A DNA stretch of 64,000 bases from a virus (IMGVR_UViG_3300045988_165521); one strand, 5' to 3'. Positions 5,866 to 19,472 are shown, numbered from the stretch's first letter. A program made the numbers and translations. Notes: a model not told the origin generated them from the letters alone.

Positions 5866-5926
5866 CAAAAGCTACTGAAAGGTAGCGAATCACTAACTAA
5901 TCATTCATCTTTAACTCATCACGTTT

Positions 5927-6460: not shown

Positions 6461-6465
6461 TAACT

Positions 6466-6502
6466 GGAGAGTGGGGAGCAATCCCTGCTCTCCTTCTTTT
6501 TT
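6466..6502 (+). terminator. rho-independent terminator
   Basis: Stem GGAGAG...CTCTCC enclosing GGGGA-gcaa-TCCCT, followed by a T-run. Confidence 0.75.
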
Positions 6503-6619
6503 CCATCAACCAAAGCCACCAACAGATACCAAAGCTCCCGACAAGTTCGTAGTACATCACAAGTATAAAATAAACGTGATTGTAGTACATAGAAGTTTAA
6601 TTTAATTTATTTATAAAAC

Positions 6620-7093
6620 ATGAAAATTTCTGAAGTAAAAAATCTGCCGAAGATTGCAGCTCCTGGTGGGCGTGTAGTAGCAGAAGTGTCTCCCGAATTC
6701 CTGAAGGAAAAGGGTATAGGTATAGTAACCTACGGTATCGCACCGAATGAAGTTGTCGAATTTCCTGACACGGAAGCTGATATTCAGCTTTTCACTCGTA
6801 CTGTTCGTCCGAACAGTGATGCAGTTGAAACACTGCTCGTAGTGAAACGAAACGGTCAGGACGGCTATTTCTCGGTCGCAGCACTTCGTCGCATGGACTA
6901 TCAGGGCAACTTCGTCGGTCCTGTATGTAAGGATCTGCAGAAGGCAGAGAATGACTACGATCGTGTAGTCAAGACGTGTGGCAAGAAGCTGACGTGCAAG
7001 GAGATGACGAAGATCAAGGTTCGTAAGTTCAACAACGGTGTCGCAACCGATGAACTGACCGAGCGCGAAGTACCCGTTCTCGAGTATGCGTAA
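6620..7093 (+). CDS. hypothetical protein (157 aa), GC-richer
   Basis: ORF-track ORF with an ATG start and a long hairpin downstream. Confidence 0.7.
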   Translation: MKISEVKNLPKIAAPGGRVVAEVSPEFLKEKGIGIVTYGIAPNEVVEFPDTEADIQLFTRTVRPNSDAVETLLVVKRNGQDGYFSVAALRRMDYQGNFVGPVCKDLQKAENDYDRVVKTCGKKLTCKEMTKIKVRKFNNGVATDELTEREVPVLEYA

Positions 7094-7103
7094 CGGTCAA
7101 ATT

Positions 7104-7141
7104 ACAGTTAAGGGGTCGTGAGTACGGCCTCTTAACTGTTT
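7104..7141 (+). terminator. terminator-like long hairpin
   Basis: ACAGTTAAGGGG...CCTCTTAACTGT. The trailing T-run is weak. Confidence 0.5.
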
Positions 7142-7263
7142 AGAAACTAATATGGGTAGAATATATGTAGCTAATGCAGATAGCTGATATAGTAATCCAG
7201 AAAGTTTCTGAGTCCTTGAAAAAGGACGGTATGACATGTGGTACATTGTACGATGTGTCCATT

Positions 7264-7293
7264 GTCTATAAGTCTTTGATCGGACTTATAGGC
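7264..7293 (+). repeat. conserved-loop hairpin, copy A
   Basis: Stem CTATAAGTC/GACTTATAG around loop TTTGATCG. Confidence 0.8.
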
Positions 7294-7331
7294 CCTAGTG
7301 ATGATTTGATGAGTTTAGATGATTAGTGACC

Positions 7332-7368
7332 GTGGGAAGAGAAGTGATGAGCTCTTCCCACATTTTTA
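7332..7368 (+). terminator. rho-independent terminator
   Basis: Hairpin GTGGGAAGAG-aagtgatga-CTCTTCCCAC followed by ATTTTT. Confidence 0.75.
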
Positions 7369-7377
7369 TTAAAGATT

Positions 7378-7524
7378 ATGGATGCAATTAAAGTAATACT
7401 CGGTATAATCTTTGGCTTGATTATGCTTGGATGGATTGCTACAGTAATAGTCATGGCTTGTGGTCCTTGGGCAGCTGTAGTAATTGCCGCGATCGCTTTA
7501 ACTATATATCTTAACCGAGATTAA
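7378..7524 (+). CDS. small membrane protein (48 aa, below cutoff)
   Basis: Translation is MDAIKVILGIIFGLIMLGWIATVIVMACGPWAAVVIAAIALTIYLNRD. Confidence 0.4.
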   Translation: MDAIKVILGIIFGLIMLGWIATVIVMACGPWAAVVIAAIALTIYLNRD

Positions 7525-8180
7525 CTGCGATTGCATAGTAATAATAGTTCTTTGACATATTGACATGACAAAATGACAGAAACACCTGACAAAATGTCAT
7601 GTTGTGACTGAAGTAGAGGGTGAAGTGATCGGTGTAAGTCGTTGATTATCACACTGTTATTCATCCTCTACTCTTTTTAAAACTGTCAATTTGTCAGACC
7701 AACTTCCTTCATGTAAAATATCTATTATTCTCACATTCAGAAAGTTACTCCTCAATAATAATAATTTCAATTACTATTTTGAAGTTTAAACAATCGCTTT
7801 TGGTAATATTAGTTATTTTATAATTTGACAATTCAAAGTTTCAAACTTTAAACATACATAAACTCGAAATCCTGCTGATGATTACCAGAAACTAATGTCT
7901 GGATTTACTATGATTAGTTTACCTAATGTAAGTAGGGTTTAAACGAGTATAAATAAGACCCGAAATTGGCTTTTCACACTCGTCGAATAGTGTAAGGGAG
8001 CGAAGTACAGTAGGTCGACAAGTAATGTATATATTCCTTAACTGACTGTCACAAAGGAAGTGAGTACATTATGAGTTATATTATTGCTCAAGACGGTAGT
8101 AATAATTATTTAATGAATTGTGGAAGCGATATCTTTTCCAAATCACAATGGAACTTGGAGTTTCAAACATTAATCTATAT
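7525..8180 (+). ncRNA. ORF-free block A, candidate structured RNA or regulatory region
   Basis: No ORF of at least 60 aa in any frame. It contains a long hairpin (AGTAGAGGGTGAA...TTCATCCTCTACT plus T-run) and ends at a tRNA-like gene. Confidence 0.3.
7553..7696 (+). promoter_or_regulatory. cluster of TGACA/TGTCA pentamers, operator-like
   Basis: TGACA occurs at 7553, 7561, 7566, 7574 and 7587. The palindrome TGACAaaaTGTCA is at 7587-7599, and TGTCA recurs at 7684 and 7692. Confidence 0.45.
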
Positions 8181-8267
8181 CGCGGAGTGTATTGCGCATG
8201 GTAACTGGATAACCAGCCTGGGCCACGCATAACCCAGGAGATTCAGGTTCGAATCCTGACTCCGCAA
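8181..8267 (+). tRNA. tRNA-like gene with initiator-type hallmarks, an expanded D region and a 10-nt anticodon loop
   Basis: Acceptor CGCGGAG/CTCCGCA has a C1xA72 mismatch. The T arm is TCAGG-TTCGAAT-CCTGA. Stem CTGGG/CCCAG (three G-C pairs) encloses CCACGCATAA, which contains CAT. It is about 12 nt longer than a class I tRNA. Confidence 0.5.
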
Positions 8268-8355
8268 CTAATTTTCTTCATTATGGCATTTTTTATCTCT
8301 TTTAATTGCTCTTGTAATTATTATAGTATGAAAACGTAAGGAATAAATATTGGAT

Positions 8356-8440
8356 GCCGAGATGGCGAAATGGCAGCCGCAGGGGACTTAAAATCCCCTG
8401 GTCAGTAATGGCCGTACGGGTTCGACTCCCGTTCTCGGTA
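8356..8440 (+). tRNA. tRNA-Leu(TAA), class II
   Basis: Acceptor GCCGAGA/TCTCGGT (G1-U72). Anticodon arm is GGGGA-CTTAAAA-TCCCC, with a long variable arm and T arm ACGGG-TTCGACT-CCCGT. Confidence 0.9.
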
Positions 8441-8642
8441 CAAAAAATCCTATGAGTTCTGCAGAGCTTACATAGGTCGCATATGTGCCTCATCAGCCTT
8501 ATGTATGAGATAATAAGAGTGATTCTCAAACTTGATTAGGAAAATAGTTTTTTCTAGTTAGTGATTCTAAGTTATCCAGTGTACAATGAGATTATATGAA
8601 TCTTTTTAATAAAAGTCTAACAAAATTTTAATTTTAAATAAT

Positions 8643-8918
8643 ATGCTCTGTAAGAATAATATTTTTAAGCTTTTTGTTCAAGAATTTATTTTATTCTTGC
8701 ATACCAAAGACTCTGAAGAATTTTGTAAAAGACTTTGTAAAAAGCATAATTTCAAAAAAGAAGAATTTGAGGAATATTTTAAAATAGTCCAAGAAAAATT
8801 CAATGAAATACCTAGTGATCAAGAAATTGCATCTCAAGAATGCAAACAGTCTCAAATAAAAAATCAAGTTATTGAAACACTTGAAAAAGTTATTTTAGAC
8901 ATTAAAACTCTTAAATAA
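8643..8918 (+). CDS. hypothetical acidic protein (91 aa)
   Basis: ORF-track ORF with an ATG start. Confidence 0.55.
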   Translation: MLCKNNIFKLFVQEFILFLHTKDSEEFCKRLCKKHNFKKEEFEEYFKIVQEKFNEIPSDQEIASQECKQSQIKNQVIETLEKVILDIKTLK

Positions 8919-8948
8919 AGTTTAACAATATCTAAAATTGTAATTATG
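8918..8948 (+). promoter_or_regulatory. 31-nt conserved upstream cassette, copy 1
   Basis: AAGTTTAACAATATCTAAAATTGTAATTATG is identical to 11226-11256 and ends in the start codon of the downstream gene. Confidence 0.8.
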
Positions 8949-9194
8949 TTCATTTCTAAGAAAACTATGCGAAAGAAAGATTTCGCATGTCTCAAAGCAG
9001 AGAAGCCGAACTATAAGGCTTTTCGCGCACCGAAAGAAAATGCGAGACACAAGTTTCAGACGCTTTTCAAAACTCCTCGTGGCTGGTTTCTCAGCATGAT
9101 GCAAGACAAAAAGCGTGTGATCGGCGAAATCTCTGTTCCTGCAGCTCAGGAATGGCTCGACGAGTGTCATTTCAAATACGAAACTGGCTGGTAA
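8946..9194 (+). CDS. hypothetical basic protein (82 aa), GC-richer
   Basis: ORF-track ORF preceded by the conserved 31-nt cassette. Confidence 0.6.
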   Translation: MFISKKTMRKKDFACLKAEKPNYKAFRAPKENARHKFQTLFKTPRGWFLSMMQDKKRVIGEISVPAAQEWLDECHFKYETGW

Positions 9195-9230
9195 GCCACC
9201 TCCTTTCTTTGTAGTTAATGAATTCATAGC

Positions 9231-10368
9231 GAGAACCTTTGGGGCTATCTTGCCGTGACTGAACCATTAACAACGAGCAACCCTGGCACAACTCGTAAAC
9301 GCCAGGAACAGTCTATCTACACATAAGGTCTAAGGACTAATTTGTGAATATAAATCCTCCTCCCCAAGTTGAATTTTATTCCGAATTGGATAGTTAATAG
9401 AGATGTCTGCGTGAGCAGGATTGGTAGTACCCTCTATTGTTAAAACTGTTTCTTTTTGACATTTTTTATCTAAATATATAAATCTAGATTATGAAATTCG
9501 CAGTAGGCTAGCTTTAATGCTTAAAAGTTCTTAGTTTAATTTTATTTCCTCTGATTTAATTCGAGTGAACAAATTGCAGAAGTAACTCACCTGCACTAAC
9601 AAGCTAGAATATGAAAGCAAGAGACGGTCCGAATATGTAGGATTTATTTTTTATTCATAATAATTTATTTGGAGAAATTAAACATAAAAATGCCTAAGAA
9701 ATTAGGTGTGTTGAATAGGAAGGCACTTGTCCTATTGCACGCAAGTTAATTACGGTTATTTCTAATATATGCTAGCAACATTGATGTAATCCAATTAATA
9801 TTGCCTATATAAGAGATGCGGAAGACTGTTAAGTGTCGAACTACCAAGCGGTTTAACAGGGATAGAGACTCTATGGTAACATAGAGAATTTGCTGGATAG
9901 CGTGGATTCACATACGTAAATGTGGAGCAAAGGAAAATGGCAGAATTACCAAACTTCTTTTCAATAGGGACGAAATTTATCTATAGACAATAACCAGTTA
10001 GCTCGTAATGTCTGCCTTTCAGATTAGCTAGTCTAGAAAGTTGAGTGAGTTATATAGACAAGAAAAGAAGAAAACCCTCGAGTTAGAGGTCATATAAGAA
10101 TTATTATCTTACCTAGCTAGTAAGATTGATCTGTAATGTTGACTGTAGTACGACAGATGATCGTAATCTTATATGTTGATTAACCGTAACAGTAGTAATT
10201 GTAATTCTTTATTATTAAAGTTTTTACATGCTGGAGAGAAGGCAGAACTCTCTTTGGAATCTGTCGTTTAGGTATAGCTTCTTTGATCGGAAGCTATACC
10301 ACTAAAATGTCTGTAATTGCACTTTTTCATTTTAAAGAGAGTTTCCGATCTCTATAAAAATCGGATTC
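9231..10368 (+). ncRNA. ORF-free block B (about 1.1 kb), candidate large structured RNA
   Basis: All six frames are closed by TAA, TAG and TGA. G+C is intermediate. It contains hairpin copy B near its 3' end and is followed directly by tRNA-Glu. Confidence 0.35.
10271..10300 (+). repeat. conserved-loop hairpin, copy B
   Basis: Stem GGTATAGCTTC/GAAGCTATACC around loop TTTGATCG. Confidence 0.85.
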
Positions 10369-10443
10369 GCTCGGTTCGTCTAGTTGGCCTAGGACGCAAG
10401 ATTTTCATTCTTGAAATCACGGGTTCGAATCCCGTACCGAGTA
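10369..10443 (+). tRNA. tRNA-Glu(TTC)
   Basis: Acceptor GCTCGGT/ACCGAGT (G1-U72). D arm is GTC-TAGTTGGCCTAG-GAC, anticodon arm CAAGA-TTTTCAT-TCTTG, T arm ACGGG-TTCGAAT-CCCGT. Confidence 0.9.
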
Positions 10444-10478
10444 CATAAAATTGAAATCTAAAATTGACTAAAAGAGTA

Positions 10479-11006
10479 ATGGAAGTATATTTTGAAGGCA
10501 CTATAGGTATCCGAAAATGGTTGCGAATTCGAAAGAATCGCATCTCTACACTTGAAGAACTTACTAAGTTAGTAATCAAACACGAACCTCGTGAATTAAC
10601 TATTCACATCAATTCACTTGGAGGAAGTACATATCAAGCTTTAGCTATTTACTTCTATCTTCTTTCTCTTAGCATTCCAGTTACTACTTTTTGTCATGGT
10701 CAAGTGGCTTCTGCAGCAACTATTATTGCTCAAGCAGGAAAAAAGAGATATATGGATAAAGATGCAGAAATCCTTATTCATACTCCTCGGATTAATACAA
10801 GTAATGCAATTACTTTCAGACTTTTAGGTATTATTAAAGAAGATCTTGCATTTTCTAATAAAATACTTAAAACTATATTCAAAAGAAAGTCAGCTTTAAC
10901 TGAAAAACAAGTTGAAAGAGTCATGCACTTACAAAATGAAGAAGGCGTATGGTTGAACTACGAAACTGCACTTCAGTTTAAGTTAGTTGATGAACTTGAA
11001 GAATAA
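10479..11006 (+). CDS. ClpP-family (S14) serine protease-like protein
   Basis: Motifs INSLGGS, VASAATII (Ser) and ILIHTP (His) are in ClpP order. The track start 10464 is TTG; the first ATG is at 10479. Confidence 0.75.
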   Translation: MEVYFEGTIGIRKWLRIRKNRISTLEELTKLVIKHEPRELTIHINSLGGSTYQALAIYFYLLSLSIPVTTFCHGQVASAATIIAQAGKKRYMDKDAEILIHTPRINTSNAITFRLLGIIKEDLAFSNKILKTIFKRKSALTEKQVERVMHLQNEEGVWLNYETALQFKLVDELEE

Positions 11007-11030
11007 TATGTATTTTCCATAGTTAGTAGC

Positions 11031-11083
11031 TGGATCTTAGTGAGAGTGAGCTACCTCTCTGAGCTTAACTAAGATCCATTTTT
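11031..11083 (+). terminator. rho-independent terminator
   Basis: Stem TGGATCTTAG...CTAAGATCCA followed by TTTTT. Confidence 0.7.
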
Positions 11084-11225
11084 AGAAACCCCTGTTTGCA
11101 TTTGATTATATAACACACCTAGTTCCATATAACTTTTCAGTTGGCATTAGTTAGATGAAAACTACGATTTTAATCCAGCGAGCGATAGTGTGGTTGCCAT
11201 GACCTGGAGATTTTTAAAATCCTTT

Positions 11226-11256
11226 AAGTTTAACAATATCTAAAATTGTAATTATG
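11226..11256 (+). promoter_or_regulatory. 31-nt conserved upstream cassette, copy 2
   Basis: Identical to 8918-8948 and ends in the ATG of the ParB-like gene. Confidence 0.8.
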
Positions 11257-11982
11257 TCTAAAGATCTTTTTTCGAGTCGTACTCCCTTTGAGAAGTGTTA
11301 TCTCGTAGAAAACGTAAAACATCTTTCGTTCATTCCAGGGAATCGTACTCTGAGAACAGCTCATGTAAATCGAATCTTCAAAGCTTTTCTCGATGGAGAG
11401 TGGATGCCGCCTATCTATGTTTCTGCAGACGGTGAAGTTCTCGATGGTCAGAATCGTCTCGCAGCATTTCGTATGCTGAAAGAGAAGTATCCGCAGAACA
11501 AAACTGCAATTCGAGTGATTATTATCAACTCGGATGCATCTCCTCTGAATCTCGCAATCAAGTTCAATGCAGGACATGCAAACTGGGTAATCACTGACTA
11601 CATGAAAGCTTATCTGGAAAAAGGTCTTCATGGCTATCAGCAGCTCCAGGATTTCACGAAAGCTTTCCCTGAGTTCGAATTCAAGGCAGCTATTCAACTG
11701 ATCAAGGGTTCGCACTCTTCGAGAAAGTTCAATAACGGTCTCTTAGAGATCTCTAACGAAGAGTACATGGAAGCATGTAAGAAAGCTGCTGCTCTCATTC
11801 AGATCGCAGAAAAGTTGAACAATAAGATCGTCCTTCGACGAGACATTGTTCTCGCTTTCTATCATGTCTGGAACAAGATTCCTAATATTCAAACGTATCT
11901 CAAACGTATCGGTAATCTTCAGGTTCCGAGCGTTGAGAATCGTAAGGAGTGGGAACTTGCATATAGTGCTCTGTTGCGATAA
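11254..11982 (+). CDS. ParB/sulfiredoxin-fold nuclease-like protein (DGQxR motif)
   Basis: IPGNRTLRTAHVNRIFKAFLDGEWMPPIYVSADGEVLDGQNRLAAF matches the ParB N-terminal / DGQHR-type pattern. Codon usage is GC-richer. Confidence 0.7.
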   Translation: MSKDLFSSRTPFEKCYLVENVKHLSFIPGNRTLRTAHVNRIFKAFLDGEWMPPIYVSADGEVLDGQNRLAAFRMLKEKYPQNKTAIRVIIINSDASPLNLAIKFNAGHANWVITDYMKAYLEKGLHGYQQLQDFTKAFPEFEFKAAIQLIKGSHSSRKFNNGLLEISNEEYMEACKKAAALIQIAEKLNNKIVLRRDIVLAFYHVWNKIPNIQTYLKRIGNLQVPSVENRKEWELAYSALLR

Positions 11983-12138
11983 TTTCTGGTTTTTATTTGT
12001 TAATCGGCACGTTAATAGAGTTTACTCTATGCCTACTACCACTCGAAGGTGTGATTAACAAGGGTCGCCTAGCGTCCTTGTATGAACGTAGGTCGGTGAT
12101 GGTCACTATCTCAGCCTCGCCATAACAACTTTAAGAAA

Positions 12139-12507
12139 ATGAATAATTTAGGTAAAGCTATAGGATTAATTCTCTTCATGGGAATTATTCTGACTTCCTG
12201 TTTATTACTTGTTTCTAAACCTAAAGATCAAGTAGTAACTATTACAGAGTTTCCTCAGGATGGAGTAAAAGTATCTAAAGTAGCTCCTATTTCTGAGTTC
12301 GAACGTAATCAGATTACAATATCTGTAATGCATGAACTTGATTCACTCGATAATATTTATCGAGTAGAAGCAGGTATGCAAAAGATTCCTGCTGAAGTAT
12401 TCGATAACTACTGTATTGAAGTAATGAATCACTACAAAGGTCAGATTCGAAGTATCTTTTATGATCCTTTAGAAAATCCTCGTATAAAAATCAGATGGGT
12501 TAATTAA
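12139..12507 (+). CDS. membrane-anchored hypothetical protein (122 aa)
   Basis: ORF-track ORF with an N-terminal TM segment (LILFMGIILTSCLLLV). Confidence 0.6.
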   Translation: MNNLGKAIGLILFMGIILTSCLLLVSKPKDQVVTITEFPQDGVKVSKVAPISEFERNQITISVMHELDSLDNIYRVEAGMQKIPAEVFDNYCIEVMNHYKGQIRSIFYDPLENPRIKIRWVN

Positions 12508-12509
12508 CT

Positions 12510-12698
12510 ATGATTATTTCTTGTATTACAACAGCTTCTAATAAAGCTGTACTCATTAAAGGAATTCCTTTTCGTATTGTTCAAATTAAAGGCTTTGTTG
12601 TAAATACAGAGACAAATCAAGTTCTTCACATTTGCATTAACAGATTGTATGATTTGTTAATGACTTGTTGTTTATACGAAAAAGTCTTTACAGAATAA
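12510..12698 (+). CDS. hypothetical protein (62 aa)
   Basis: ORF-track ORF with an ATG 3 nt after the upstream stop. Confidence 0.35.
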   Translation: MIISCITTASNKAVLIKGIPFRIVQIKGFVVNTETNQVLHICINRLYDLLMTCCLYEKVFTE

Positions 12699-12742
12699 TG
12701 TAGGAAGTTGTATCTATAATTAATAATAAATAAATTAACAGT

Positions 12743-12937
12743 ATGAAGGGTGGAAAACCTGGACTGAATGTCCGTCGCAAAGGTGCTCTTGCTCGCCTGG
12801 AAGTTACGTATGAAGCTTTCAAAAAAGCAGGTGAAGACAAAAGGAATTTGATTACGGGAAAAACTATTCCCTACGATCAAGAAATCGCACGCATGGAGCG
12901 TGAGATTGCAACACTCAAATCTCGAATCTATAACTAA
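12743..12937 (+). CDS. hypothetical basic protein (64 aa), GC-richer
   Basis: ORF-track ORF. TTAACAGTATG lies upstream, as at 17570. Confidence 0.55.
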   Translation: MKGGKPGLNVRRKGALARLEVTYEAFKKAGEDKRNLITGKTIPYDQEIARMEREIATLKSRIYN

Positions 12938-12951
12938 AACAAAGAAAGAAG

Positions 12952-13155
12952 ATGTCAACGATTGGACAGGTAAGACGCATGCTTCGTATTCAGGCACTCG
13001 AAGCTGCAAAACGTGAGGATTATCGAACACGTACTCGTGTTCAGAAAATCTATATCAAGGATAAGATTACGAGGAATATCACTATAAAGGAGATTACTCA
13101 TTTTCCTAAGAAGGAAGAGACTCCTGCAGAGGTAGAAACTCAGGTAACTGAATAA
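12952..13155 (+). CDS. hypothetical protein (67 aa)
   Basis: ORF-track ORF. Confidence 0.5.
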   Translation: MSTIGQVRRMLRIQALEAAKREDYRTRTRVQKIYIKDKITRNITIKEITHFPKKEETPAEVETQVTE

Positions 13156-13417
13156 AATTACGTATACTTTCAGGCTTCAGTAAAAGATTTGGTGAATTTA
13201 GATGATTCCACTGCTGTACAGAATTTTTCTGTTAGGATAACATAAGGCAGCATAATTGATTCTAATACTTGCATCCTTGAGAGTTCGAACTGTATCAATG
13301 ACCAAATAAGAGATACAGATTTTTAATAAAATATAGGCTGCAACCTATTTGGGACGCTAACGGATATTATTATGATGTTGTTGCAGTAAAACATATAGTA
13401 AGAAGGTTAGTGAAAAG

Positions 13418-13487
13418 ATGTGAATAGCTCAGTTGGTAGAGCGGCAGGTTGTGCTGAGGGTCGCAGGTTCGAGTCCTGTTTCACATC
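13418..13487 (+). tRNA. tRNA-like gene with a truncated anticodon arm (14 nt instead of 17)
   Basis: The acceptor (ATGTGAA/TTCACAT), D arm (GCTC-AGTTGGTA-GAGC) and T arm (GCAGG-TTCGAGT-CCTGT) are all regular. Only GCAGGTTGTGCTGA lies between position 26 and the variable loop. Confidence 0.45.
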
Positions 13488-13507
13488 CAAAATTAAAAAT
13501 TAAAATT

Positions 13508-13723
13508 ATGTTTTGGTTTATATATAAAATAACTCTCGTAGTTATTGTAATGATAATAATTGCAGTATACTTTAAAGATCGAGAACTTTTCAAGTCGCAA
13601 ATTTTTAACTTATTTACGACAGGAGAATTTATTATCTTATTGACTCCCATTATCAATACACTTCTTATTATTTATGGTGTATATAGAGCCATTCAAATTA
13701 CAACTAAAAATGGTAGGAAGTAA
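13508..13723 (+). CDS. membrane protein (71 aa)
   Basis: Track ORF 13433..13723 begins inside the tRNA-like gene. The first ATG after it is at 13508 (MFWFIYKITLVVIVMIIIAVYF...). Confidence 0.5.
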   Translation: MFWFIYKITLVVIVMIIIAVYFKDRELFKSQIFNLFTTGEFIILLTPIINTLLIIYGVYRAIQITTKNGRK

Positions 13724-13877
13724 ATATTGTGTAGAATATTATTTTTATAACGAGGATAATTTACCAGTTCAAAGTTTTGCTTTTGTTATTGCAACTTCTG
13801 ATGAGGAAGCAATACAAAAAGCACAAAATTATTCTACAAGTAAAATAACAATTATATCTTGTACTAAATACGCTTAG
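13710..13877 (+). CDS. hypothetical protein (55 aa)
   Basis: Track ORF 13674..13877. An ATG at 13710 gives a short overlap with the upstream gene. Confidence 0.45.
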   Translation: MVGSKYCVEYYFYNEDNLPVQSFAFVIATSDEEAIQKAQNYSTSKITIISCTKYA

Positions 13878-13966
13878 GCATGGAAGATATTGAGACGAAT
13901 GATATTGGGCAATCTTTAGTAGATGAATTTGTCGATGATAATGCTATTGAAGCTCAAGAAAAATAG

Positions 13967-15453
13967 CCTACGGACTTAAGAGGGTTAACACAAACCTAAA
14001 CTATTATGGATAAACCCATAATTCAATTATAATAAGCCTATAATGAATTTGAGGGGAGTTAAGGCAATTCTGAACAATTAAAACCAGCCGTATCCTAACT
14101 TCAACATGGTCTGTCAGTTTAGTGTTGAAGGAATAAGTTCTGTAATTATTTAGGGTGAACCATTTGAAGAAGTTGTAATTCTTCTACGATGACTTGTGTC
14201 GTATAATAAAAGAACAAGATCTATGTACAGTTGCATGGATTACTCCGTGAGATTCGGAGAGTTAAACTGCAGGTCAATAGAAGTGGTTAATCTATTGATG
14301 AGTCCTTTGTCTACTAAGGGAGTCCACTCGTTATAAGTTTAGAGGGAAGGAGTAGAATAACTTGAGTCGAGGCCATGAGTATTTAGTTAGCATGAGTTAT
14401 ATTATCCCAGATTAACAAATGTGTAAATACAAAAGGTACAGCAAGGATATCTCTAATTGAATAACTTTACTTCTAAATTCTGTAGTTTAGGTTTAGAGAT
14501 CTTTTAATAGGGAAAGCCAGCTTATTATAACGAAATTAATACCACTGCAAGGGCATGCGTTACAGAGTGGTATTTTTAATAGAATGTGTTAAATATTATA
14601 TAACTGATAACAATGGGAGTAGATGCTTAGTTCTACAAAAATCTCTATCTGATAAGCTTATGATCCTGCCAGTGATTAAGTAAAACAGAGATGCCTTGGC
14701 AGAGGCTGCAACGGCTAGCAGATCATAAGAGATCCTAGTATCGGGCGGAGGGAAGTTGCATACGTAAGTACCTCTAATTTTTTAAATCCTTCTGATCAAG
14801 CCTATGAGTAGATGAAGGTGCATAGTGACAGTAGGCTGCTTGATCTATGTTTAAGGTGGTTGACTAAGAGACGAATGCAGTAAAAGACTGGCCCGAGAAG
14901 GTCAGTAGAGTAGGGGCGGAGCCTACCGTAGTCACAATGAAAAACGAAAAGATTAAGTTGTCGCAAGGAAACTTACACTTAGTAGTTTATAAGAGCAAAC
15001 AGACGTCAAGCAATGTACAGATTAAATGATGTTTGGGAAAATAGAAACTATTAGTAGCTGTAACTACGAATGTTTGATGTAGCAGTCAATTGCATATGAG
15101 AGGTCATATGATTGATAGCCAAATGAATATCTGCTCTTATTGATAAACATGCCTGTACAAGTAATATCGAAGGTTGCACACGGATGATACGAAGGTTAAA
15201 GAGCTGGTGCAATAAGCTCATAATTAGAATTTATCTAGCTGGAATGTTTATCACTTTTTACCTATAACACTTTGATCGGTGTTATAGGTCCTAGAAAATA
15301 ATAGAGATAGGTGGCAAAGTCTGAAGATTCGAAAGAATATATGGCAACAGTACCTAGCTGTAGGGTTGTAACCATTGTGAGGTCACATTTTAGATGATCC
15401 AAACGTACAGTCTATCTCTTTTATTTTTTTAAGAAAATAATTATGGTAAAAAT
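13967..15453 (+). ncRNA. ORF-free block C (about 1.5 kb), candidate large structured RNA(s)
   Basis: It is the largest ORF-free stretch, with stops of all three kinds in all frames. It has many local and long-range complementarities (for example AGAGATAG at about 15304 with CTATCTCT at about 15411, then a T-run). It contains hairpin copy C. Confidence 0.35.
15260..15289 (+). repeat. conserved-loop hairpin, copy C
   Basis: Stem ACCTATAACAC/GTGTTATAGGT around loop TTTGATCG. Confidence 0.85.
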
Positions 15454-15696
15454 ATGAAAAAGTTACTCATTGTACTCGCATTATGTGTATTTGCAGTATC
15501 TTGTTGTGAAGTAGACCACAACAATTCTCAGAAAAAAGAACCAGAAAAGATTACTGCAACTTCCTTTAAAGTTTATACACAAAGAGGAAGTCTTGTTTGT
15601 GAATACTATGAATTCATATATCATGGGCATAAGTATATTACAAACTATGGAGAAAAATTTTTACTTCATTCTCCTGAGTGTTCTTGTCAGTATTAG
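15454..15696 (+). CDS. putative lipoprotein (80 aa), paralog of 39418..39636
   Basis: Signal peptide with lipobox-like VFAVSC. The C-terminal region (GH.Y...H.P.C.C) is shared with 39418..39636. Confidence 0.6.
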   Translation: MKKLLIVLALCVFAVSCCEVDHNNSQKKEPEKITATSFKVYTQRGSLVCEYYEFIYHGHKYITNYGEKFLLHSPECSCQY

Positions 15697-15699
15697 TTT

Positions 15700-15999
15700 A
15701 TGGAAAATAAAAGTTTACGAGCTCTTGCAATATTTATTATAATAGGTTTTGTCTTTATAGTAAATTTTGCTTTTTTTGGAGTTCAAGGTAGAATTACTGA
15801 AGACTGGACAGATAAGTTTACAAAAGAGATTAACTATCTTGAATATAAGGTAGATTCTTTAGAAAAGGTAGTTAATAGTAATCTTACACATCGTCGTGAT
15901 ACATTAATCATTGATGTACGCCCTCAAACAATCAAAATTTATCAACCTAATGGAAATAGTATTAATAATAATTCTAGTATTGCTAGTACTCCAAGATGA
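15700..15999 (+). CDS. membrane-anchored hypothetical protein (99 aa)
   Basis: ORF-track ORF ending in TGA. Under TGA=Trp it would run to the TAG at 16021-16023. Confidence 0.55.
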   Translation: MENKSLRALAIFIIIGFVFIVNFAFFGVQGRITEDWTDKFTKEINYLEYKVDSLEKVVNSNLTHRRDTLIIDVRPQTIKIYQPNGNSINNNSSIASTPR

Positions 16000-16009
16000 C
16001 GATTAAACT

Positions 16010-16165
16010 ATGTGGTTCTTTAGATTTGCAATTATTCTCTTAGAATTTTTATTTATTTTTTATTATACTGCAGTTGTTTTTCAACTGTTAGATGTATGGA
16101 AAATAACTAATCGTAAGATAACATGGAAGGCTATTATACCTTTCTATTACTTTATTAAGAGGTAG
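16010..16165 (+). CDS. small membrane protein (51 aa, below cutoff)
   Basis: Translation is MWFFRFAIILLEFLFIFYYTAVVFQLLDVWKITNRKITWKAIIPFYYFIKR. Confidence 0.35.
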   Translation: MWFFRFAIILLEFLFIFYYTAVVFQLLDVWKITNRKITWKAIIPFYYFIKR

Positions 16166-16270
16166 AAAATATATGGCGCCTCTATTTATAATTCTTGTAA
16201 TCTGTTTATTGATATTATTAATAGATTGCTTTAAAAACAAAAGAAAACATTAATCACTTTATAAAATCAT

Positions 16271-17449
16271 ATGAATTTAAAAAAGATTATTGCTGTCTTC
16301 GTGGCAGTGTTCGCAGTTTTCTGCGTTGTGTTTCTCGGTAAGATTGGAGAGGATGTGAAGAACGAAACTATTGTGGTCAACCAGTACCCCCTTACGGGTA
16401 ACATGGAGTATTGGACGACGCCTGGCTTCCACTGGCAGTGGTGGGGTAAGACGACGGTCTATTACAAGACTCAGCAGCTCTGGTTCGGATCTGACAACGA
16501 TGCTGGTCAACAGATGGGAAGTCCTATTCCCGTGATCTTTAATGATGCGTCGGATGGTATGGTGTATGGTTCACTTCGAGTTAAACTCCCTACTGATCCT
16601 AAGTATCTAGCACGTATTCAGACGGATTATAACGGTATGGATAGGCTTATTAATGACCTCGTTCGGCCTACTGTTACCAAGGTTATTTATGCGTCTGGTC
16701 CTCTGATGTCTGCATTTGAATCTTATGCTGAAAAGAAGAACGACCTTATTGAGTATATCACTGACCAGCTCAATAATGGTGTATACAAAACTTCTGTAAA
16801 GCGAGTTGAGATTCTGGATGCAATTTCAGGAGATAAAAAGCTGGTTAATATTGCAACTCTTATCCCTGATTCTCTCTCTGCTGGTGGATACAAACGTAGT
16901 GAATCTTCGCCGTTTGCCTACTATGGTTTAGAGATCGGTCAGGTAGCAGTTTCTAAAATTGACTATTCTGAAACAGTTAAGAAGCAGATTGCTCAGCAAC
17001 AGAAAGCAAACATGGATATCCAGACTGCAAAGGCGCAAGCCGCTGCTGCTCAACAGGATGCAATTAAGGCAGAGGAGCTTGGTAAAGCTGCTGCTATGAC
17101 TGCAAAGTGGGAGCAGGAAAAAGTAAAAGCAGTCGAGGTAACTAAGGCTCAACAGGCTTATGAAGTAGCATCACTTGCTGCTAAAGAAGCTATGGAAAAT
17201 GCAAAGAAAGTGAAGGCTGAAGGTGATGCAGAAGCATTCCGTCAGGCAGCATTAGTACGTGCAGGTCTTAGTCCTAAGGAAAAGGCAGAGATTGAGATGC
17301 AAACGAAGATTGGTGTAGCTGAAGCTTTATCGAAGCTGGAACTTCCTAAAATTGTTATGGCTGGTGGAAACACTAGTAATGGCAATGCTGCCATGGATGC
17401 GATGGGACTTAAGATGGTATCGGATCTTGTAGATAAGATGTCGAATTAA
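16271..17449 (+). CDS. SPFH/Band 7 (prohibitin/HflK-like) domain protein
   Basis: An N-terminal TM is followed by an SPFH-like core and an Ala/Gln/Lys-rich coiled coil (QQQKANMDIQTAKAQAAAAQQDAIKAEELGKAAA). Codon usage is GC-richer. Confidence 0.8.
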   Translation: MNLKKIIAVFVAVFAVFCVVFLGKIGEDVKNETIVVNQYPLTGNMEYWTTPGFHWQWWGKTTVYYKTQQLWFGSDNDAGQQMGSPIPVIFNDASDGMVYGSLRVKLPTDPKYLARIQTDYNGMDRLINDLVRPTVTKVIYASGPLMSAFESYAEKKNDLIEYITDQLNNGVYKTSVKRVEILDAISGDKKLVNIATLIPDSLSAGGYKRSESSPFAYYGLEIGQVAVSKIDYSETVKKQIAQQQKANMDIQTAKAQAAAAQQDAIKAEELGKAAAMTAKWEQEKVKAVEVTKAQQAYEVASLAAKEAMENAKKVKAEGDAEAFRQAALVRAGLSPKEKAEIEMQTKIGVAEALSKLELPKIVMAGGNTSNGNAAMDAMGLKMVSDLVDKMSN

Positions 17450-17493
17450 GTTCTTTAAGGCTAGGGAGGAGCCTACGGCAATCCTCCCAACAA

Positions 17494-17564
17494 ACAGAAG
17501 TAGTTCAATGGTAGAACGTAACACTGATAAGGTTAAAATAGGGGTTCGATTCCTCTCTTCTGTT
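17494..17564 (+). tRNA. tRNA-Ile(GAT)
   Basis: Acceptor ACAGAAG/CTTCTGT. D arm is GTTC-AATGGTA-GAAC, the anticodon loop is CTGATAA, T arm is AGGGG-TTCGATT-CCTCT. Confidence 0.85.
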
Positions 17565-17580
17565 CTAATTTAACAGTATA

Positions 17581-17796
17581 ATGTTTAAGAATATGTTAAA
17601 GTTTAGAGGTAAACAACTTGCAAGTGGTGCAGTTGTAAATGAAAGGATGTACTATTATGTTCTTGATGCACTTGATAGTAATAAAGACATAACTCTTACT
17701 TCTATTCTTGGAGTTGAAGTGAGTCGGTGTAACGATTTAACTAAAGAACAGTTAGAACAAGTTTTTGATTACTTAGTTGAAAAGGAATTAGAATAA
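17581..17796 (+). CDS. hypothetical protein (71 aa)
   Basis: ORF-track ORF. Confidence 0.5.
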   Translation: MFKNMLKFRGKQLASGAVVNERMYYYVLDALDSNKDITLTSILGVEVSRCNDLTKEQLEQVFDYLVEKELE

Positions 17797-17825
17797 AAAT
17801 ATCATTCATTAAATAAAAAGAAACG

Positions 17826-17990
17826 ATGGCAAAAATGAACATGAAGGCTATTACGATGGCTTTCAAAGAAGTTCTTCTCGATGAGGAGGGAAATCCTGTA
17901 AAGGATAATGAAGGTAAACCTGTTTATGTACGTGTGTTCCGAAAGGTTCGCCACAATGCAGCATACTTTCCCCGCACTTATCGCCGTTAG
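17826..17990 (+). CDS. small basic protein (54 aa, below cutoff), GC-richer
   Basis: Translation is MAKMNMKAITMAFKEVLLDEEGNPVKDNEGKPVYVRVFRKVRHNAAYFPRTYRR. Confidence 0.45.
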   Translation: MAKMNMKAITMAFKEVLLDEEGNPVKDNEGKPVYVRVFRKVRHNAAYFPRTYRR

Positions 17991-18540
17991 GCAGAAAATC
18001 CTACCTGCTTCACCAAAGGTGTAGTCCCTGTAATAGAACGTTACAGTTTTCTCTATTAAATATATGGAAAAACCATATATAAGAGAAGGAACCCATACTA
18101 AAACTATGAAGTTCTAAAAGGACGATAAACATTGCCTACATCTCTTTGATCGGAGGTGTAGGCTCTATTTTTTACCTATTTTCAAACGAATTCGTTAGGA
18201 GAAAGCAGAGCCTCTAATGCTTACGCAATAAGTATTATGCAGAAAACGCGACTAAAACTTGATTCCACAAGTGTTGAATTTTGTTGATTAAACGATACCA
18301 GATAGAGTGGCTCATACCCACAAACCTGAATTAAACTACATGATCGTAAAGTGTAGATTCTCCTGTAGGCATACAGGCTGTTATTGTTTACCCATTGGAA
18401 GGCGTGGGAATAGGTAGAGTTAAGGAGGAAGGTTAGTCTACTGGTGTATAGTAGTATAGAGAACATGGCCCAGTACTAGGCTGAATAATAGCCCATGTTA
18501 GCACACCTTAACTTTTTAATTATTAAATTTCTATTAAGTT
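17991..18540 (+). ncRNA. ORF-free block D, candidate structured RNA
   Basis: There is no sense ORF (the 18221..18466 minus ORF looks spurious). It contains hairpin copy D followed by a T-run. Confidence 0.3.
18134..18163 (+). repeat. conserved-loop hairpin, copy D
   Basis: Stem GCCTACATCTC/GAGGTGTAGGC (one G-U pair) around loop TTTGATCG, then TCTATTTTTT. Confidence 0.85.
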
Positions 18541-18761
18541 ATGGAAGAAGATTTTGATGGAAATCAAATATTAGGAGTAGGACTATTAATAGTAGCTGCA
18601 CTTGCAGCAATAATTCTAGCTCTAATGTAATCACATAAGTACTAAGCGAAAGCCGAGCGATGAGGGTTCATCTTCCTAATACGCGTTAAAGCTCCCGAGA
18701 GGTATCAGAACTGAGAATCAGAGTATGTTAAGTCTCAAAACGAAGAACAGTACTTATTTTA

Positions 18762-18835
18762 GGGCCCTTAGCTCAATTGGTTAGAGCAACTGACTCATAA
18801 TCAGTAGGTTATCAGTTCAAGTCTGGTAGGGCCCA
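18762..18835 (+). tRNA. tRNA with CAT anticodon, most similar to tRNA-Ile2 (lysidine type); Met not excluded
   Basis: GGGCCCTTAGCTCAATTGGTTAGAGC...CTCATAA...AGGGCCCA closely parallels E. coli ileX (GGCCCCUUAGCUCAGUGGUUAGAGC...). Confidence 0.9.
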
Positions 18836-19170
18836 CTATATTAAAGTTATCTGAGGTAGAAGGAAAGTACCGCTCTGTACTGAACACGGACAGGTAGAAG
18901 GTGGAAGTGAATTCCTTAAATCTCTTAGGTGTTCAGCTGAGGTTTAAGAAGGTTCATGTGTAAGATAACTTTAATTTAAACTAGCTCGCCGTCTCACCTT
19001 TCATTGGAAAGATAGTGTACCGTATATTTAGTTCTAGTACATGAAGGAGACATACTTCGAGGATAATCTGGAGGTCGCGAACGAAAGATGAAAGTAAGAT
19101 GTTAGATAGGGCCTGGTAATACAGGGGAACTGAGAGCGAGACTCAGGATGGACACAAAATTTTTAGTAAA
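18836..19170 (+). ncRNA. ORF-free block E with long-range inverted repeats
   Basis: TTAAAGTTATCT (about 18841) pairs with AGATAACTTTAA (about 18966). No ORF is present. Confidence 0.3.
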
Positions 19171-19470
19171 ATGATAACAAAAGAAGATATAATTCACTGG
19201 TTTGAAGCTCTCAAAAATAAATGTGATAAAGTAACAACAGGCAATTGTTCTCATGAAGTTAATTCGATTCGTTTCTTAGCATCTAATTGGGCGGATAAAA
19301 TGAAGAAAGAGCAAGGAGAAACTATGTTTTATCATAATTTCATTGGTATATCTGAAGTTTGTGTTAAGATAACTTCTGGAAATCTTGCTCATCATATAGC
19401 AACGATTAAAAGAATGTGTACTCGAAATATAGAGTTCATTGAAAAGTATGGAATAGAAGAAATAAGTTAA
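19171..19470 (+). CDS. hypothetical protein (99 aa)
   Basis: ORF-track ORF. Confidence 0.55.
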   Translation: MITKEDIIHWFEALKNKCDKVTTGNCSHEVNSIRFLASNWADKMKKEQGETMFYHNFIGISEVCVKITSGNLAHHIATIKRMCTRNIEFIEKYGIEEIS

Positions 19471-19472
19471 GT

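Follow-up and report, generated by a model that had tools for sequence, protein, structure and literature searches.

In the mitochondrial tRNA-punctuation model, tRNAs located between genes serve as cleavage signals for RNase P and RNase Z, and natural non-tRNA substrates of RNase P include pre-4.5S RNA and the C4 RNA precursor of phages P1 and P7. Hairpins composed of an acceptor stem, a T stem and a T loop are substrates of cleavage by bacterial RNase P RNA; the contacts comprise N-1, the G+1/C+72 pair and the RCCA-RPR pairing, and swapping the loop alters both the rate and the fidelity of cleavage (PMC10465520). tRNA-like elements act as RNase P/Z processing signals in MALAT1/mascRNA (PMC8457004, PMC11693755) and in the t-elements of plant mitochondria (PMC11658184). 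The mascRNA and MEN-beta elements recruit RNase P, then RNase Z and the CCA-adding enzyme, and the flanking RNA ends are made by these tRNA enzymes (PMC8457004, PMC11693755).

Here we describe a family of cis-acting RNA elements, previously undescribed, to which four hairpins in a 64-kb window (the entire stretch of gut phage DNA analyzed) belong. The motif CTTTGATCGG occurs in the window four times, on the plus strand only, at 7274, 10281, 15270 and 18144. This is far beyond chance frequency: the mean in shuffled sequence is 0.04, and four copies were reached in 0 of 100 shuffles. Reading of the sequence bears out the positions and arms given in an earlier note on this DNA, all on the plus strand, although the stems described there as 11 bp are parts of a longer helix. 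RNAfold predicts a 12-bp helix in all four copies (-15 to -19.8 kcal/mol, z -5.1 to -6.3); the U and the G at the ends of the 8-nt loop form the 12th pair and leave UUGAUC as a loop of 6 nt.

Copy 1 (7264-7297, plus strand) consists of a 5' arm at 7264-7274 (GTCTATAAGTC), the loop TTTGATCG at 7275-7282, a 3' arm at 7283-7293 (GACTTATAGGC) and the tail CCTA at 7294-7297; its stem GTCTATAAGTC/GACTTATAGGC has 11 bp including one U.G, not 9 bp, and it scores 53.1 bits with the covariance model and folds at -15.0 kcal/mol (z -5.1). Upstream, the ORF at 6620-7093 is followed by a terminator-like hairpin and about 120 nt, and a second terminator-like hairpin (7332-7361) begins 35 nt past the copy. 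Copy 2 (10271-10304, plus strand; GGTATAGCTTC/TTTGATCG/GAAGCTATACC, tail ACTA; 46.6 bits, -18.4 kcal/mol) lies upstream of tRNA-Glu (10369-10444), which starts 64 nt downstream. Copy 3 (15260-15293, plus strand; ACCTATAACAC/TTTGATCG/GTGTTATAGGT, tail CCTA; 50.2 bits, -15.5 kcal/mol) is followed on its 3' side by a structured element of about 130 nt with a T-run (15303-15430) and then by the ORF at 15454-15696. Copy 4 (18134-18167, plus strand; GCCTACATCTC/TTTGATCG/GAGGTGTAGGC, tail TCTA and then TTTTTT; 52.1 bits, -19.8 kcal/mol) occupies the end of a block (17797-18172) that is conserved in relatives at about 70-76% identity, and homology between the relatives ends just past the tail and the T-run.

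In the window, the covariance model recovers only these four copies (46.6-53.1 bits, E 1e-13 to 1e-15); the next match scores 13.5 bits, and a true copy read in antisense 8.8 bits. All four copies are located inside stretches without any ORF of at least 60 aa, which remain ORF-free under every single stop-codon reassignment. The earlier placement of copies 2 and 3 close to the 3' ends of their blocks is correct. The further claim that the stems share almost no sequence is overstated. All four have G or A at position 1, UAUA or UACA as the core at pairs 4-7 and the conserved 3' tail N-C-T-A, and are therefore diverged paralogs. A search against Rfam 15 yielded nothing overlapping the hairpins at the gathering score, nothing overlapping them at E<=10 over 6500-19500, and nothing at E<=10 for copy 3 in the 101-nt stretch around it. 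A tRNA gene (RF00005) or a member of another Rfam 15 family was accordingly rejected, as there was no covariance-model match.

Beyond the window, more than 60 distinct versions of the element were found in related phages, crAss-like phages and Alistipes/Rikenellaceae contigs. In about 1 Mb of related phage DNA, 127 of the 137 occurrences of TTTGATCG carry a stem of exactly 11 bp. In an alignment of 62 members, 99.6% of the cells are paired and all 12 pairs have changed on both sides, with a covariation score of 0.998 compared with 0.223 for shuffles (0 of 500 equal it) and at most 0.19 for slid registers. The 12th pair was left free in every search; loop positions 1 and 8 form U.G in 46 members, A-U in 5, U-A in 5 and C-G in 3, with 3 others. 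In 17 of 31 distinct metagenome pattern matches, the six pairs left unconstrained all form, where chance would give 0.3%. The helix is perfect and bulge-free. The earlier expectation of a selected single-strand structure with a sequence-specific loop is thus upheld by overwhelming covariation, whereas two of the regularities noted in the window do not extend to the entire family. The closing C-G pair of the 11-bp stem, present in all four window copies, is found in 38 of the 62 members (G-C in 19, G-U in 3, U-A in 2), and the loop, invariant in the window, is replaced in other members by at least 10 variants without GATC, including UUUGGUCG, UUUGAUUG, AUUGGGUU, AUUGGUUU, AUUGAGUU and UUUGACCA. 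Across the variants, the conserved core of the loop is UUGR; the consensus cap is a hexaloop Y-U-G-R-N-Y, pairs 4-7 are usually U-A-U-A, and both are far more conserved than the remainder of the helix.

Because the non-Watson-Crick exceptions are G.U on the gene-sense strand in 27 cases and A.C in 3, the pairing points to an element that folds as RNA. In the two copies computed (1 and 4), the sense RNA also exceeds the antisense in stability by 4.6-5.1 kcal/mol. Of the RNA and single-stranded DNA alternatives left by the earlier note, RNA is favored by this asymmetry and by strict co-orientation with genes. We consider it highly probable that the hairpins represent a selected, cis-acting RNA structural element.

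The element resembles the end of a tRNA in its helix length and flanks. No search pattern imposed the flank and tail features (-1, G1 and +1 to +4). The 5' flank is A/U-rich. Among 38 members, position -1 is T in 23 and A in 15, and is neither G nor C; G1 is present in 32 (a G-C pair occupies position 1 in 54 of the larger set of 62); and the base after the helix, the equivalent of the discriminator, is variable (A 14, C 12, T 10, G 2). Past this base, the tail consists of C (37/38), U (31/38) and A (36/38); past +4, the family logo shows no preferred base. The tRNA genes of the window have C74 in 25 of 26 cases, with tails N-CTA in 10 and N-CAA in 6, against a CTA background of 1.6%; distinct tRNAs over all loci have C74 in 136 of 138, C75 in none, A76 in 88 and T at N-1 in 81. 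An N-C-W-A tail follows 70% of family-like hairpins and 3% of 1238 other hairpins of at least 10 bp. The only strongly shared tail feature is the C at +2; at position 75, tRNAs have A as often as U and the hairpins strongly prefer U. Overall, the element displays the 12-bp coaxial helix of a tRNA top half (7 acceptor plus 5 T-stem pairs), G1-C72, an unpaired discriminator, a 3' trailer like those of the tRNA genes and A/U at -1. It lacks the 7-nt T-loop (U54-U55-C56-R57-A58-N-N with G53-C61 closure), having an 8-nt loop with paired ends, and the variants AUUGGGUU and UUUGGUCG break positions U54/A58. The proposal of a tRNA top-half (minihelix) mimic gains support from the helix length, from G1-C after A/U and from the N-C-U-A tail found in phage tRNA genes, but the likeness to a T-loop is weak. 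The sequence TTTGA[A/G]T does occur in the T-loops of three local tRNAs, as had been noticed, and the UUUGA prefix is the sole resemblance of the hairpin loop to them; however, loop positions 1 and 8 pair, and AUUGGGUU does not fit.

The element is always intergenic, with no same-strand ORF overlap in 95 contexts, and every copy with identifiable neighbors is co-oriented with genes, including the one on the minus-strand arm of the crAss-like phage cr52_1. It is located at gene and RNA boundaries: between cistrons, ahead of tRNA-Glu or tmRNA, and in the RNA-rich, ORF-poor island of the phage. In the relative L027, only 7 nt separate tRNA-Glu from the end of a copy with the variant loop TTTGATTA and the related stem GTTATAGCTTC; crAss-like phages have a variant copy about 20-150 nt upstream of tmRNA; and a sigma factor gene is found 16-124 nt downstream of some copies. 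The neighbors also include fimbrillins, an HNH protein and ORFs without a family match. In host contigs, the element was seen only in fimbrillin-like (pilus) gene arrays, which consist of tandem paralogs and contain 2-3 copies each (1-3 per host locus), mostly 8-45 nt past a stop codon, with the next start 3 to 505 nt away. In the phage family of the window, all 44 pattern matches fall within an island of about 12 kb. The distribution is narrow and comprises gut Bacteroidales contigs, of the Alistipes/Rikenellaceae type, and their phages, including the crAss-like ones.

The element probably marks for the cell the points at which transcripts are cut or ended. The preferred candidate mechanism, to which we give somewhat less than an even chance, is processing by mimicry of a tRNA end. 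The element would be carried within longer transcripts, where its helix may imitate the 'top half' (acceptor and T arm) of a tRNA precursor, and its tail the 3' trailer. If so, host tRNA end-processing enzymes would act on it, through cleavage at G1 by RNase P, cleavage or trimming at the N-C-U-A tail by the 3'-end machinery, or both. As an outcome, polycistronic transcripts would be cut at fixed points, with a stable hairpin left on one of the new ends. We infer both the recognizing enzyme and the cleavage products in this scheme; the structure, its selection as RNA, its anatomy, distribution and placement at boundaries, and the agreement with the tails of local tRNA genes are shown by the analysis.

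Several observations run counter to processing, including the tail match with tRNA genes, which is strong only for C at +2. The hairpin carries a hexaloop with a covarying closing pair instead of a 7-nt T-loop; phage copies are confined to the island of about 12 kb, although tRNA genes reach 30 kb further; and its restriction to fimbrillin arrays in the host contigs would be unusual for a signal of general processing.

The sequence constraint on the UAUA core and on the near-invariant loop exceeds what RNase P or RNase Z is known to need, which suggests a dedicated binding partner. The element might thus be the operator of a dedicated RNA-binding protein or sequence-specific endoribonuclease of Rikenellaceae-type Bacteroidales that reads the hexaloop and the UAUA core; it would then function as a 3'-UTR stabilizer, a decay-entry site or a regulator of the downstream cistron, and its likeness to a tRNA end would be incidental. 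This explanation, which we regard as unlikely but worth serious consideration, would account for the excess conservation of Y-U-G-R-N-Y and UAUA over other helix positions, the narrow host range, the restriction to fimbrillin-like arrays, the limitation of phage copies to one island, and the position of the hairpin, which is tied to the stop codon upstream (8-45 nt) and not to the next start, 3 to 505 nt away. However, no lineage examined has a candidate gene next to the element, and the fixed 12-bp length, G1-C, A/U at -1 and the N-C-U-A tail are explained less economically than by tRNA-end mimicry. The two models are not mutually exclusive.

We consider it improbable that the element is a specialized terminator or attenuator, used to stop or reduce transcription behind each cistron or RNA gene. 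Like intrinsic (Rho-independent) terminators, it is a stable hairpin past genes, 8-45 nt beyond stop codons in the host arrays, and copy 4 and most of its orthologs are followed by a T-run, where homology between phages stops. Nevertheless, the T-run is missing in three of the four window copies and in nearly all host and crAss-like copies, and in copy 4 it starts 4 nt past the helix; the window copies, with the tails CCTAGTGA, ACTAAAAT, CCTAGAAA and TCTATTTTTT, do not combine a GC-rich stem with an immediate U-tract. In the classical terminators of the same phage, for example at 14553-14590 and 7332-7370, the stem is GC-rich and covarying and the Ts come right behind it. Moreover, loop sequence, helix length and the C-U-A tail are conserved in the element and unconserved in intrinsic terminators, and genes that need transcription lie directly downstream of several copies (tRNA-Glu at 7-64 nt, tmRNA, the sigma factor gene at 16-124 nt).

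Even less probable is a single-stranded DNA hairpin involved in recombination or replication, such as an attC-like boundary, an HUH/Y1-transposase or Xer-type site, or a lagging-strand priming signal near an origin. The gene-hairpin-gene-hairpin arrays of the hosts look like cassette arrays, hairpins lie at homology breakpoints between related phages, the DNA fold is still significantly stable, and the window copies are located 2-13 kb rightward of a GC-skew minimum and strand switch, in a region whose plus strand would be the lagging-strand template. Yet the pairing exceptions are almost all sense-strand G.U, a U.G in twelfth position is characteristic of RNA, tandem paralogs rather than unrelated cassettes make up the arrays, and co-orientation with transcription is constant, the minus-strand arm of cr52_1 included; in attC sites, the bottom strand is the one that folds, extrahelical bases and R/L boxes are present, and the loop is not conserved. 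No integrase or transposase gene was found among the neighbors examined.

Two ideas from the earlier note, kissing between loops through the GAUC palindrome and a methylation mark (here taken as Dam at GATC), are scarcely credible as general explanations and appear largely refuted by the variant loops: the dominant loop, that of all four window copies among others, contains GATC, but members of the same architecture have loops without it that conserve UUGR, and the G and C of GAUC adjoin or fall inside the 12th-pair region.

Several other classes of hairpins were compared with the element and rejected. REP/BIME elements are likewise intergenic hairpins past stop codons, able to stabilize upstream mRNA, but they have conserved stems, variable loops and hundreds of copies in both orientations, whereas the element has variable stems, a conserved loop, a single orientation and few copies per genome (four per 64 kb, all on the plus strand, in the window). 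N4-type hairpin promoters have a 5-7-bp stem and a 3-nt loop on the template strand, are used by the virion RNA polymerase and are phage-specific; the element has 12 bp on the sense (non-template) strand and occurs in chromosomal operons of bacteria as well. Integron attC sites are bottom-strand DNA folds of 57-141 nt with extrahelical bases and R/L core sites, and depend on IntI. The element resembles them as a structure-defined hairpin behind each array gene in one orientation, but shows none of these properties: its helix is free of bulges, the sense strand folds, and an integrase is absent among the neighbors examined.

Comparison with tRNA-like systems brings us back to processing by tRNA-end mimicry. 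The pATSer model substrate of RNase P (acceptor stem, T stem, T loop and RCCA) likewise stacks about 12 bp into one coaxial helix, has G+1/C+72 and either a pyrimidine or A/U at -1, and carries a 3' N-C... tail that can base-pair with the P15 loop in RNase P RNA; loop identity affects its cleavage (PMC10465520). The element differs from RNase P hairpin substrates in its C-U-A rather than C-C-A tail and its non-T-loop. The mascRNA and MEN-beta elements at the 3' ends of MALAT1 and NEAT1 are also tRNA-mimicking modules embedded in longer transcripts (PMC8457004, PMC11693755), and copies 2 and 3 in the window similarly lie at the 3' ends of non-coding blocks of about 1-1.4 kb. However, mascRNA is a eukaryotic cloverleaf-like fold of about 58 nt, for which recruitment of tRNA enzymes has been demonstrated, whereas the element is a bare 12-bp hairpin with a tail, found in bacteria and phages, for which such recruitment is proposed. 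The t-elements keep acceptor/T-arm features and recognizable T-loops, in contrast to the hexaloop and UAUA core peculiar to the bacterial and phage element; like it, they are tRNA-like structures between genes, serving as RNase P/Z cleavage signals where the element sits, co-oriented, at cistron boundaries (PMC11658184).

The window is phage-like: it has a G+C content of about 30%, carries 26 tRNA genes and one tmRNA gene, all on the plus strand, and encodes a Clp-type prohead protease, a ParB-like protein, an SPFH protein, an RNA ligase and a CobS/CobT-like pair. Megablast of the region found no close relative in INPHARED, and the nearest cultured phage, as judged by one protein, is Bacteroides phage BS162P1 (33% identity).

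Four copies of a hairpin with a 4-nt tail lie on the plus strand at 7264-7297, 10271-10304, 15260-15293 and 18134-18167 (copies 1 to 4). When the sequences were read, the inverted repeats reported in the earlier note were seen at all four sites; the stem of copy 1 is 11 bp rather than 9 when a U.G pair is counted (GTCTATAAGTC/GACTTATAGGC). The sequence CTTTGATCGG occurs four times in the window, on the plus strand only (7274, 10281, 15270 and 18144), against a mean of 0.04 in shuffled sequence, and a covariance model run over the 64 kb returned exactly these four copies at 46.6-53.1 bits, compared with 13.5 bits for the best non-member and 8.8 bits for the antisense of a true copy; random occurrence, which the earlier note had named as a possible refutation, does not account for these values. 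As RNA, the four copies fold at -15 to -19.8 kcal/mol (z -5.1 to -6.3). The antisense RNA of copies 1 and 4, the two tested, is 4.6-5.1 kcal/mol weaker than the sense RNA, and the sense-strand DNA hairpins of the four copies are likewise weaker than the RNA (-6.3 to -10.1 kcal/mol).

All four hairpins lie, as first described, within stretches without an ORF of at least 60 aa. Because no single reassignment of TAG, TGA or TAA opens long ORFs there, these blocks are truly non-coding, and structured RNA accounts for at least part of their length. A conserved non-coding RNA of about 450 nt is recognized on the plus strand at 14124-14590 by conservation, predicted fold and terminator: 14124-14585 is 82% identical in relatives (the adjoining SPFH gene there is about 76% identical at the DNA level), 15 of its 98 predicted pairs show compensatory change, and the RNA ends in a classical terminator, with a covarying GC stem and a T-run directly after it. 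No Rfam family matched this RNA. Structured elements with T-runs also lie on the plus strand directly 3' of copy 3, at 15303-15430 (long-range stem AGAGATAG/CTATCTCT, then TTTATTTTTTT), and 3' of copy 1, at 7332-7370 (GTGGGAAGAG...CTCTTCCCAC, then ATTTTTA); both may be small RNAs freed by processing at the hairpins. Searches of Pfam and PHROGs with the small ORFs adjoining the hairpins yielded nothing useful.

Other features of the window were recorded alongside. The stretch 4500-7000 has 44-52% G+C in surroundings of about 28%, with ORFs that overlap on both strands and match nothing in Pfam or PHROGs. The switch of gene strand at about 4.5 kb and the minimum of cumulative GC skew at about 5-5.5 kb both fall in this area, and a replication-initiator-like HTH protein is encoded nearby at 3651-4394 on the minus strand; the stretch may be an origin region or a large RNA. 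An exact 32-nt repeat, AAGTTTAACAATATCTAAAATTGTAATTATGT, is located at 8918-8949 and 11226-11257, with weaker copies at 8613 and 13488; each copy runs into the ATG of an ORF, and the repeat may be a promoter or 5'-UTR cassette.

Further copies were sought in related DNA. A scan of IMG/VR with a stem-restricted pattern gave at least 45 stretches on contigs of 40-175 kb, and a protein search with the SPFH gene gave 29 related loci (68-100% identity). In this approximately 1 Mb of DNA, the stem is exactly 11 bp long in 127 of the 137 occurrences of TTTGATCG, and compensated variants are numerous; no other loop sequence is nearly as frequent among hairpins with 8-nt loops. Full-stem copies were found on contigs of Alistipes, Rikenellaceae and Paludibacter MAGs in a scan of one genome per species; the genome-collection scan gave at least 54 matches, about chance level by our estimate, of which only the 10 full-stem ones were used. 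The metagenome scan yielded at least 113 loci, mostly from the human gut. Pooled, the exact-loop matches comprise at least 38 distinct stems; two of the scans imposed TATA and this loop, which inflates the frequencies of both. Copy numbers and taxonomic range from the collection scans are lower bounds, and hosts were assigned through MAG binning, in which some bins are clearly wrong (copies of this phage, for example, are labelled Clostridium). A scan by structure only (11 bp, 8-nt loop, N-C-N-A tail) recovered the variant loops TTTGGTCG (7), TTTGATTG (3) and ATTGGGTT (3), as well as ATTGGTTT, ATTGAGTT, ATTGATAC, TTTGACCA and others. Given these members, the conserved feature of the loop is W-U-U-G-R-N-N-N rather than GATC. 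The search that the earlier note had called for thus brought the family to more than 60 distinct sequences.

Among 38 representatives with the exact loop, 99.5% of cells pair, all 11 pairs show change on both sides, and the covariation score is 0.909, compared with 0.197 in shuffles. Extending the set to 62 members with variant loops and the helix to 12 pairs, the twelfth formed by loop positions 1 and 8, gives 99.6% pairing cells, change on both sides in 12 of 12 pairs and a score of 0.998, against 0.223 in shuffles (none of 500 as high) and at most 0.19 in slid registers; the compensation first noticed in four stems thus extends through the family. The twelfth pair, never a criterion in sequence selection, is U.G in 46 members, A-U in five, U-A in five, C-G in three and unpaired in three. 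As the alignment sets were selected for pairing, two further tests free of that bias were made. All six free pairs are formed in 17 of 31 distinct metagenome matches to a pattern in which nothing but the loop and TATA was fixed (chance, 0.3%), and, among cores with at least eight Watson-Crick pairs and with both strands counted symmetrically, the non-Watson-Crick pairs in the loop sense are 27 G.U and 3 A.C. Together, these results identify the sense strand as the one selected for folding, which, with the placement of the element, points to RNA.

The sequence logo was read at positions fixed by no search pattern. Both positions immediately 5' of the helix hold A or T, with one exception (position -1, 23 T and 15 A), the first base of the helix is G, partnered by C, in 32 of 38, and the base after the helix is variable (14 A, 12 C, 10 T, 2 G) and is followed by C (37/38), U (31/38) and A (36/38), with no preference further 3'. 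Pairs 4-7 are mostly U-A-U-A, which was partly imposed by two scans, yet is also seen in protein-retrieved loci; variants carry the compensated swaps UGUA/UACA or UAUG/CAUA. The loop-adjacent stem pair is C-G in 38 and G-C in 19 of the 62 members. In a host variant, GGGTATAGGTC/GCCCTATACCC, that recurs in numerous independent contigs (the host fimbrillin arrays L075, L076, L087, L142, L159, L166 and L186), a U.C mismatch takes the place of the second pair from the loop, which suggests a tolerated or functional irregularity.

The element did not match any known RNA family in Rfam 15, and searches of the literature for the loop sequence and the concept returned only PCR primers or unrelated work; we therefore regard it as a new structured-RNA family, a conclusion well supported by more than 60 distinct sequences and 12 of 12 covarying pairs.

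Across 95 distinct contexts, no same-strand ORF of at least 80 aa overlaps the element. On host contigs, tandem arrays of fimbrillin-like (Mfa-like) lipoprotein genes contain two or three copies at each locus; these lie on the coding strand without exception, in most cases 8-45 nt after a stop codon and 3-505 nt before the next start. In the crAss-like Suoliviridae, such as cr52_1, a copy directly follows the gp57 stop codon and precedes a sigma-factor gene, and a variant-loop copy lies about 90 nt upstream of the tmRNA. Permuted, two-piece tmRNAs were called by ARAGORN in several crAss-like relatives, where the acceptor piece starts about 20 nt after the tail of a variant hairpin. A tmRNA is present in both phage lineages (21965-22345, plus strand, in the window; 4633-4989 in the retrieved locus L197; 81171-81551 in NC_055888.1). 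Within the window, copy 2 lies 64 nt before tRNA-Glu; in a relative (L027), 7 nt separate tRNA-Glu from the end of a copy that has a variant loop and a related stem. Copy 4 closes a conserved block, 17797-18172, just after which homology between relatives stops. In whole contigs of this phage family, all 44 pattern matches fall within at most 21 kb around the SPFH gene, which confines the element to an RNA-rich island. The element is thus a cis-acting RNA hairpin under strong structural selection, located at the boundaries of cistrons and stable RNAs.

The hairpins fall at homology breakpoints between related phages (17797-18172 compared with L059-L073), with one side kept and the other replaced, and these look like junctions of mosaic modules. 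In cr52_1 (L242, NC_055888.1), gaps of 1-2 kb without an annotated gene (74202-76312 and 86492-87471) are comparable to the ORF-free blocks of the window.

The ends of the element resemble those of a tRNA precursor. Like the local precursors, it has 12 helical pairs (7 acceptor and 5 T-stem pairs in the tRNA), G1-C at the helix base, A or U at -1, and a free "discriminator" followed by C-W-A. The N-C-W-A tail is found in 70% of family-like hairpins and 3% of 1238 other hairpins of at least 10 bp in the same DNA. Among the tRNA genes of the window, C follows the discriminator in 25 of 26 and the next base is T or A, never C; tails are N-CTA in ten and N-CAA in six (CTA background, 1.6%). Over all fetched loci (L001-L243), 138 distinct tRNA genes have C74 in 136 and C75 in none, position 75 being A in 83, T in 50 and G in 5, with A76 in 88 and T before the acceptor stem in 81. 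The top-half mimic proposed in the earlier note is thus supported by helix length, G1-C, the -1 base and the tail, but not by T-loop geometry: three tRNAs in the window have TTTGA[A/G]T T-loops, whereas variants such as AUUGGGUU and the covariation of loop positions 1 and 8 speak against the loop being one.

The C-W-A tails of the tRNA genes (for example, 18762-18836 and 17494-17565) amount to a pseudo-CCA rule; C74 without C75 bears on tRNA 3'-end maturation in this system. Neither ARAGORN nor Rfam called the tRNA-like sequence at 8182-8265 (plus strand), in which a 7-bp acceptor stem (GCGGAGU/ACUCCGC) and a canonical T arm (CAGGTTCGAATCCTG) accompany two odd central arms. Candidate readings are an unusual tRNA, one with an intron or a degenerate one. 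For the tRNA at 13418-13488 (plus strand; Rfam, 48.8 bits), ARAGORN reads no normal anticodon ("???", "tg").

The element is common to Bacteroidales hosts and two unrelated phage lineages, a tRNA-rich family with genomes of 100-175 kb and the crAss-like Suoliviridae, and therefore its reader is likely to be host-encoded. The most economical mechanism would be that tRNA end-processing enzymes take it as a substrate. Bacterial RNase P cleaves acceptor/T-stem hairpins, contacting N-1, G+1/C+72, the discriminator and C74/C75 (RCCA-P15 pairing), and loop identity tunes its rate and fidelity by way of the contact that the T stem-loop makes with the specificity domain (PMC10465520); for a substrate lacking a D-loop partner, this would go some way towards explaining why the loop is conserved. 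The tail could be handled by the 3' machinery, either RNase Z or exonucleases stopped by the helix and C74, and then the CCA-adding enzyme. Long transcripts would thereby be punctuated: cistrons would be separated, the large phage non-coding RNAs, tRNA and tmRNA would be freed from precursors, and a protective helix would cap the products; once excised, the 12-bp minihelix could be a small RNA in its own right to which CCA is added. In host arrays the hairpin is tightly coupled to upstream stop codons, which suggests that it comes to lie at the 3' end of the upstream mRNA there; where it stands just ahead of tRNA-Glu and tmRNA, its location suggests that it marks off the 5' side of the RNA that follows. 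Our tentative reading, held at well short of even confidence, is that a minimal "tRNA-end" hairpin serves gut Bacteroidales, along with at least two unrelated lineages of phages that infect them, as a shared and dedicated RNA punctuation mark: a 34-nt top-half mimic that recruits RNase P and/or the tRNA 3'-end machinery and is the bacterial equivalent of mascRNA and t-elements.

A dedicated RNA-binding protein or nuclease would better account for the invariant hexaloop, the UAUA core and the narrow gene associations; such a reader is possible, if on balance improbable, and is compatible with the data without being exclusive of tRNA-end mimicry. That the element is a terminator is unlikely: most copies lack a T-run, the ordinary terminators of the genome are of a different design, and several copies lie directly upstream of genes. 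A role in single-stranded-DNA recombination or replication is very improbable: the G.U asymmetry speaks against it, attC-like features are lacking, and the element strictly follows the direction of transcription on both replichore-like arms. The methylation mark or kissing loop that the earlier note considered possible for GATC is hardly credible, being largely refuted by variant loops that keep W-U-U-G-R-N-N-N and not GATC.

Several other readings were tried and rejected. A T7-like promoter (TATAGG in the 3' arm) leaves the pairing of non-conserved positions and the host operons unexplained; the spacing and TA position of a Bacteroidetes sigma promoter (-33 TTTG/-7 TAnnTTTG) fit no copy among the sequences read; pairing of the loop with the 3' tail or flanks has neither complementarity nor covariation; and, by our reasoning, pairing of UGAUC with the 16S 3' end is possible only for the dominant loop and lost in variants.

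Whatever its mechanism, the element adds a structured-RNA family missing from Rfam 15. As a host-dependent signal common to all of them, it also ties crAss-like phages and a second tRNA-rich family, an uncultured one, to hosts of the Alistipes/Rikenellaceae type, and it offers a handle on the large non-coding blocks of these phages and on how permuted tmRNAs acquire their ends. In mitochondria, tRNAs between genes serve as RNA cleavage signals. If tRNA-end mimicry is indeed the processing signal, bacteria and phages would use the "tRNA punctuation" logic of mitochondria and MALAT1/mascRNA with a far smaller module, which could also provide a simple, transplantable RNA-cutting tag for Bacteroidales. 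By our inference, the element would punctuate long transcripts as mitochondrial tRNAs, plant t-elements and mascRNA do. While the RNA family itself is new, we regard the proposed working principle as already known elsewhere, tRNA-like processing signals having been described in MALAT1/mascRNA and plant t-elements (PMC8457004, PMC11693755, PMC11658184).
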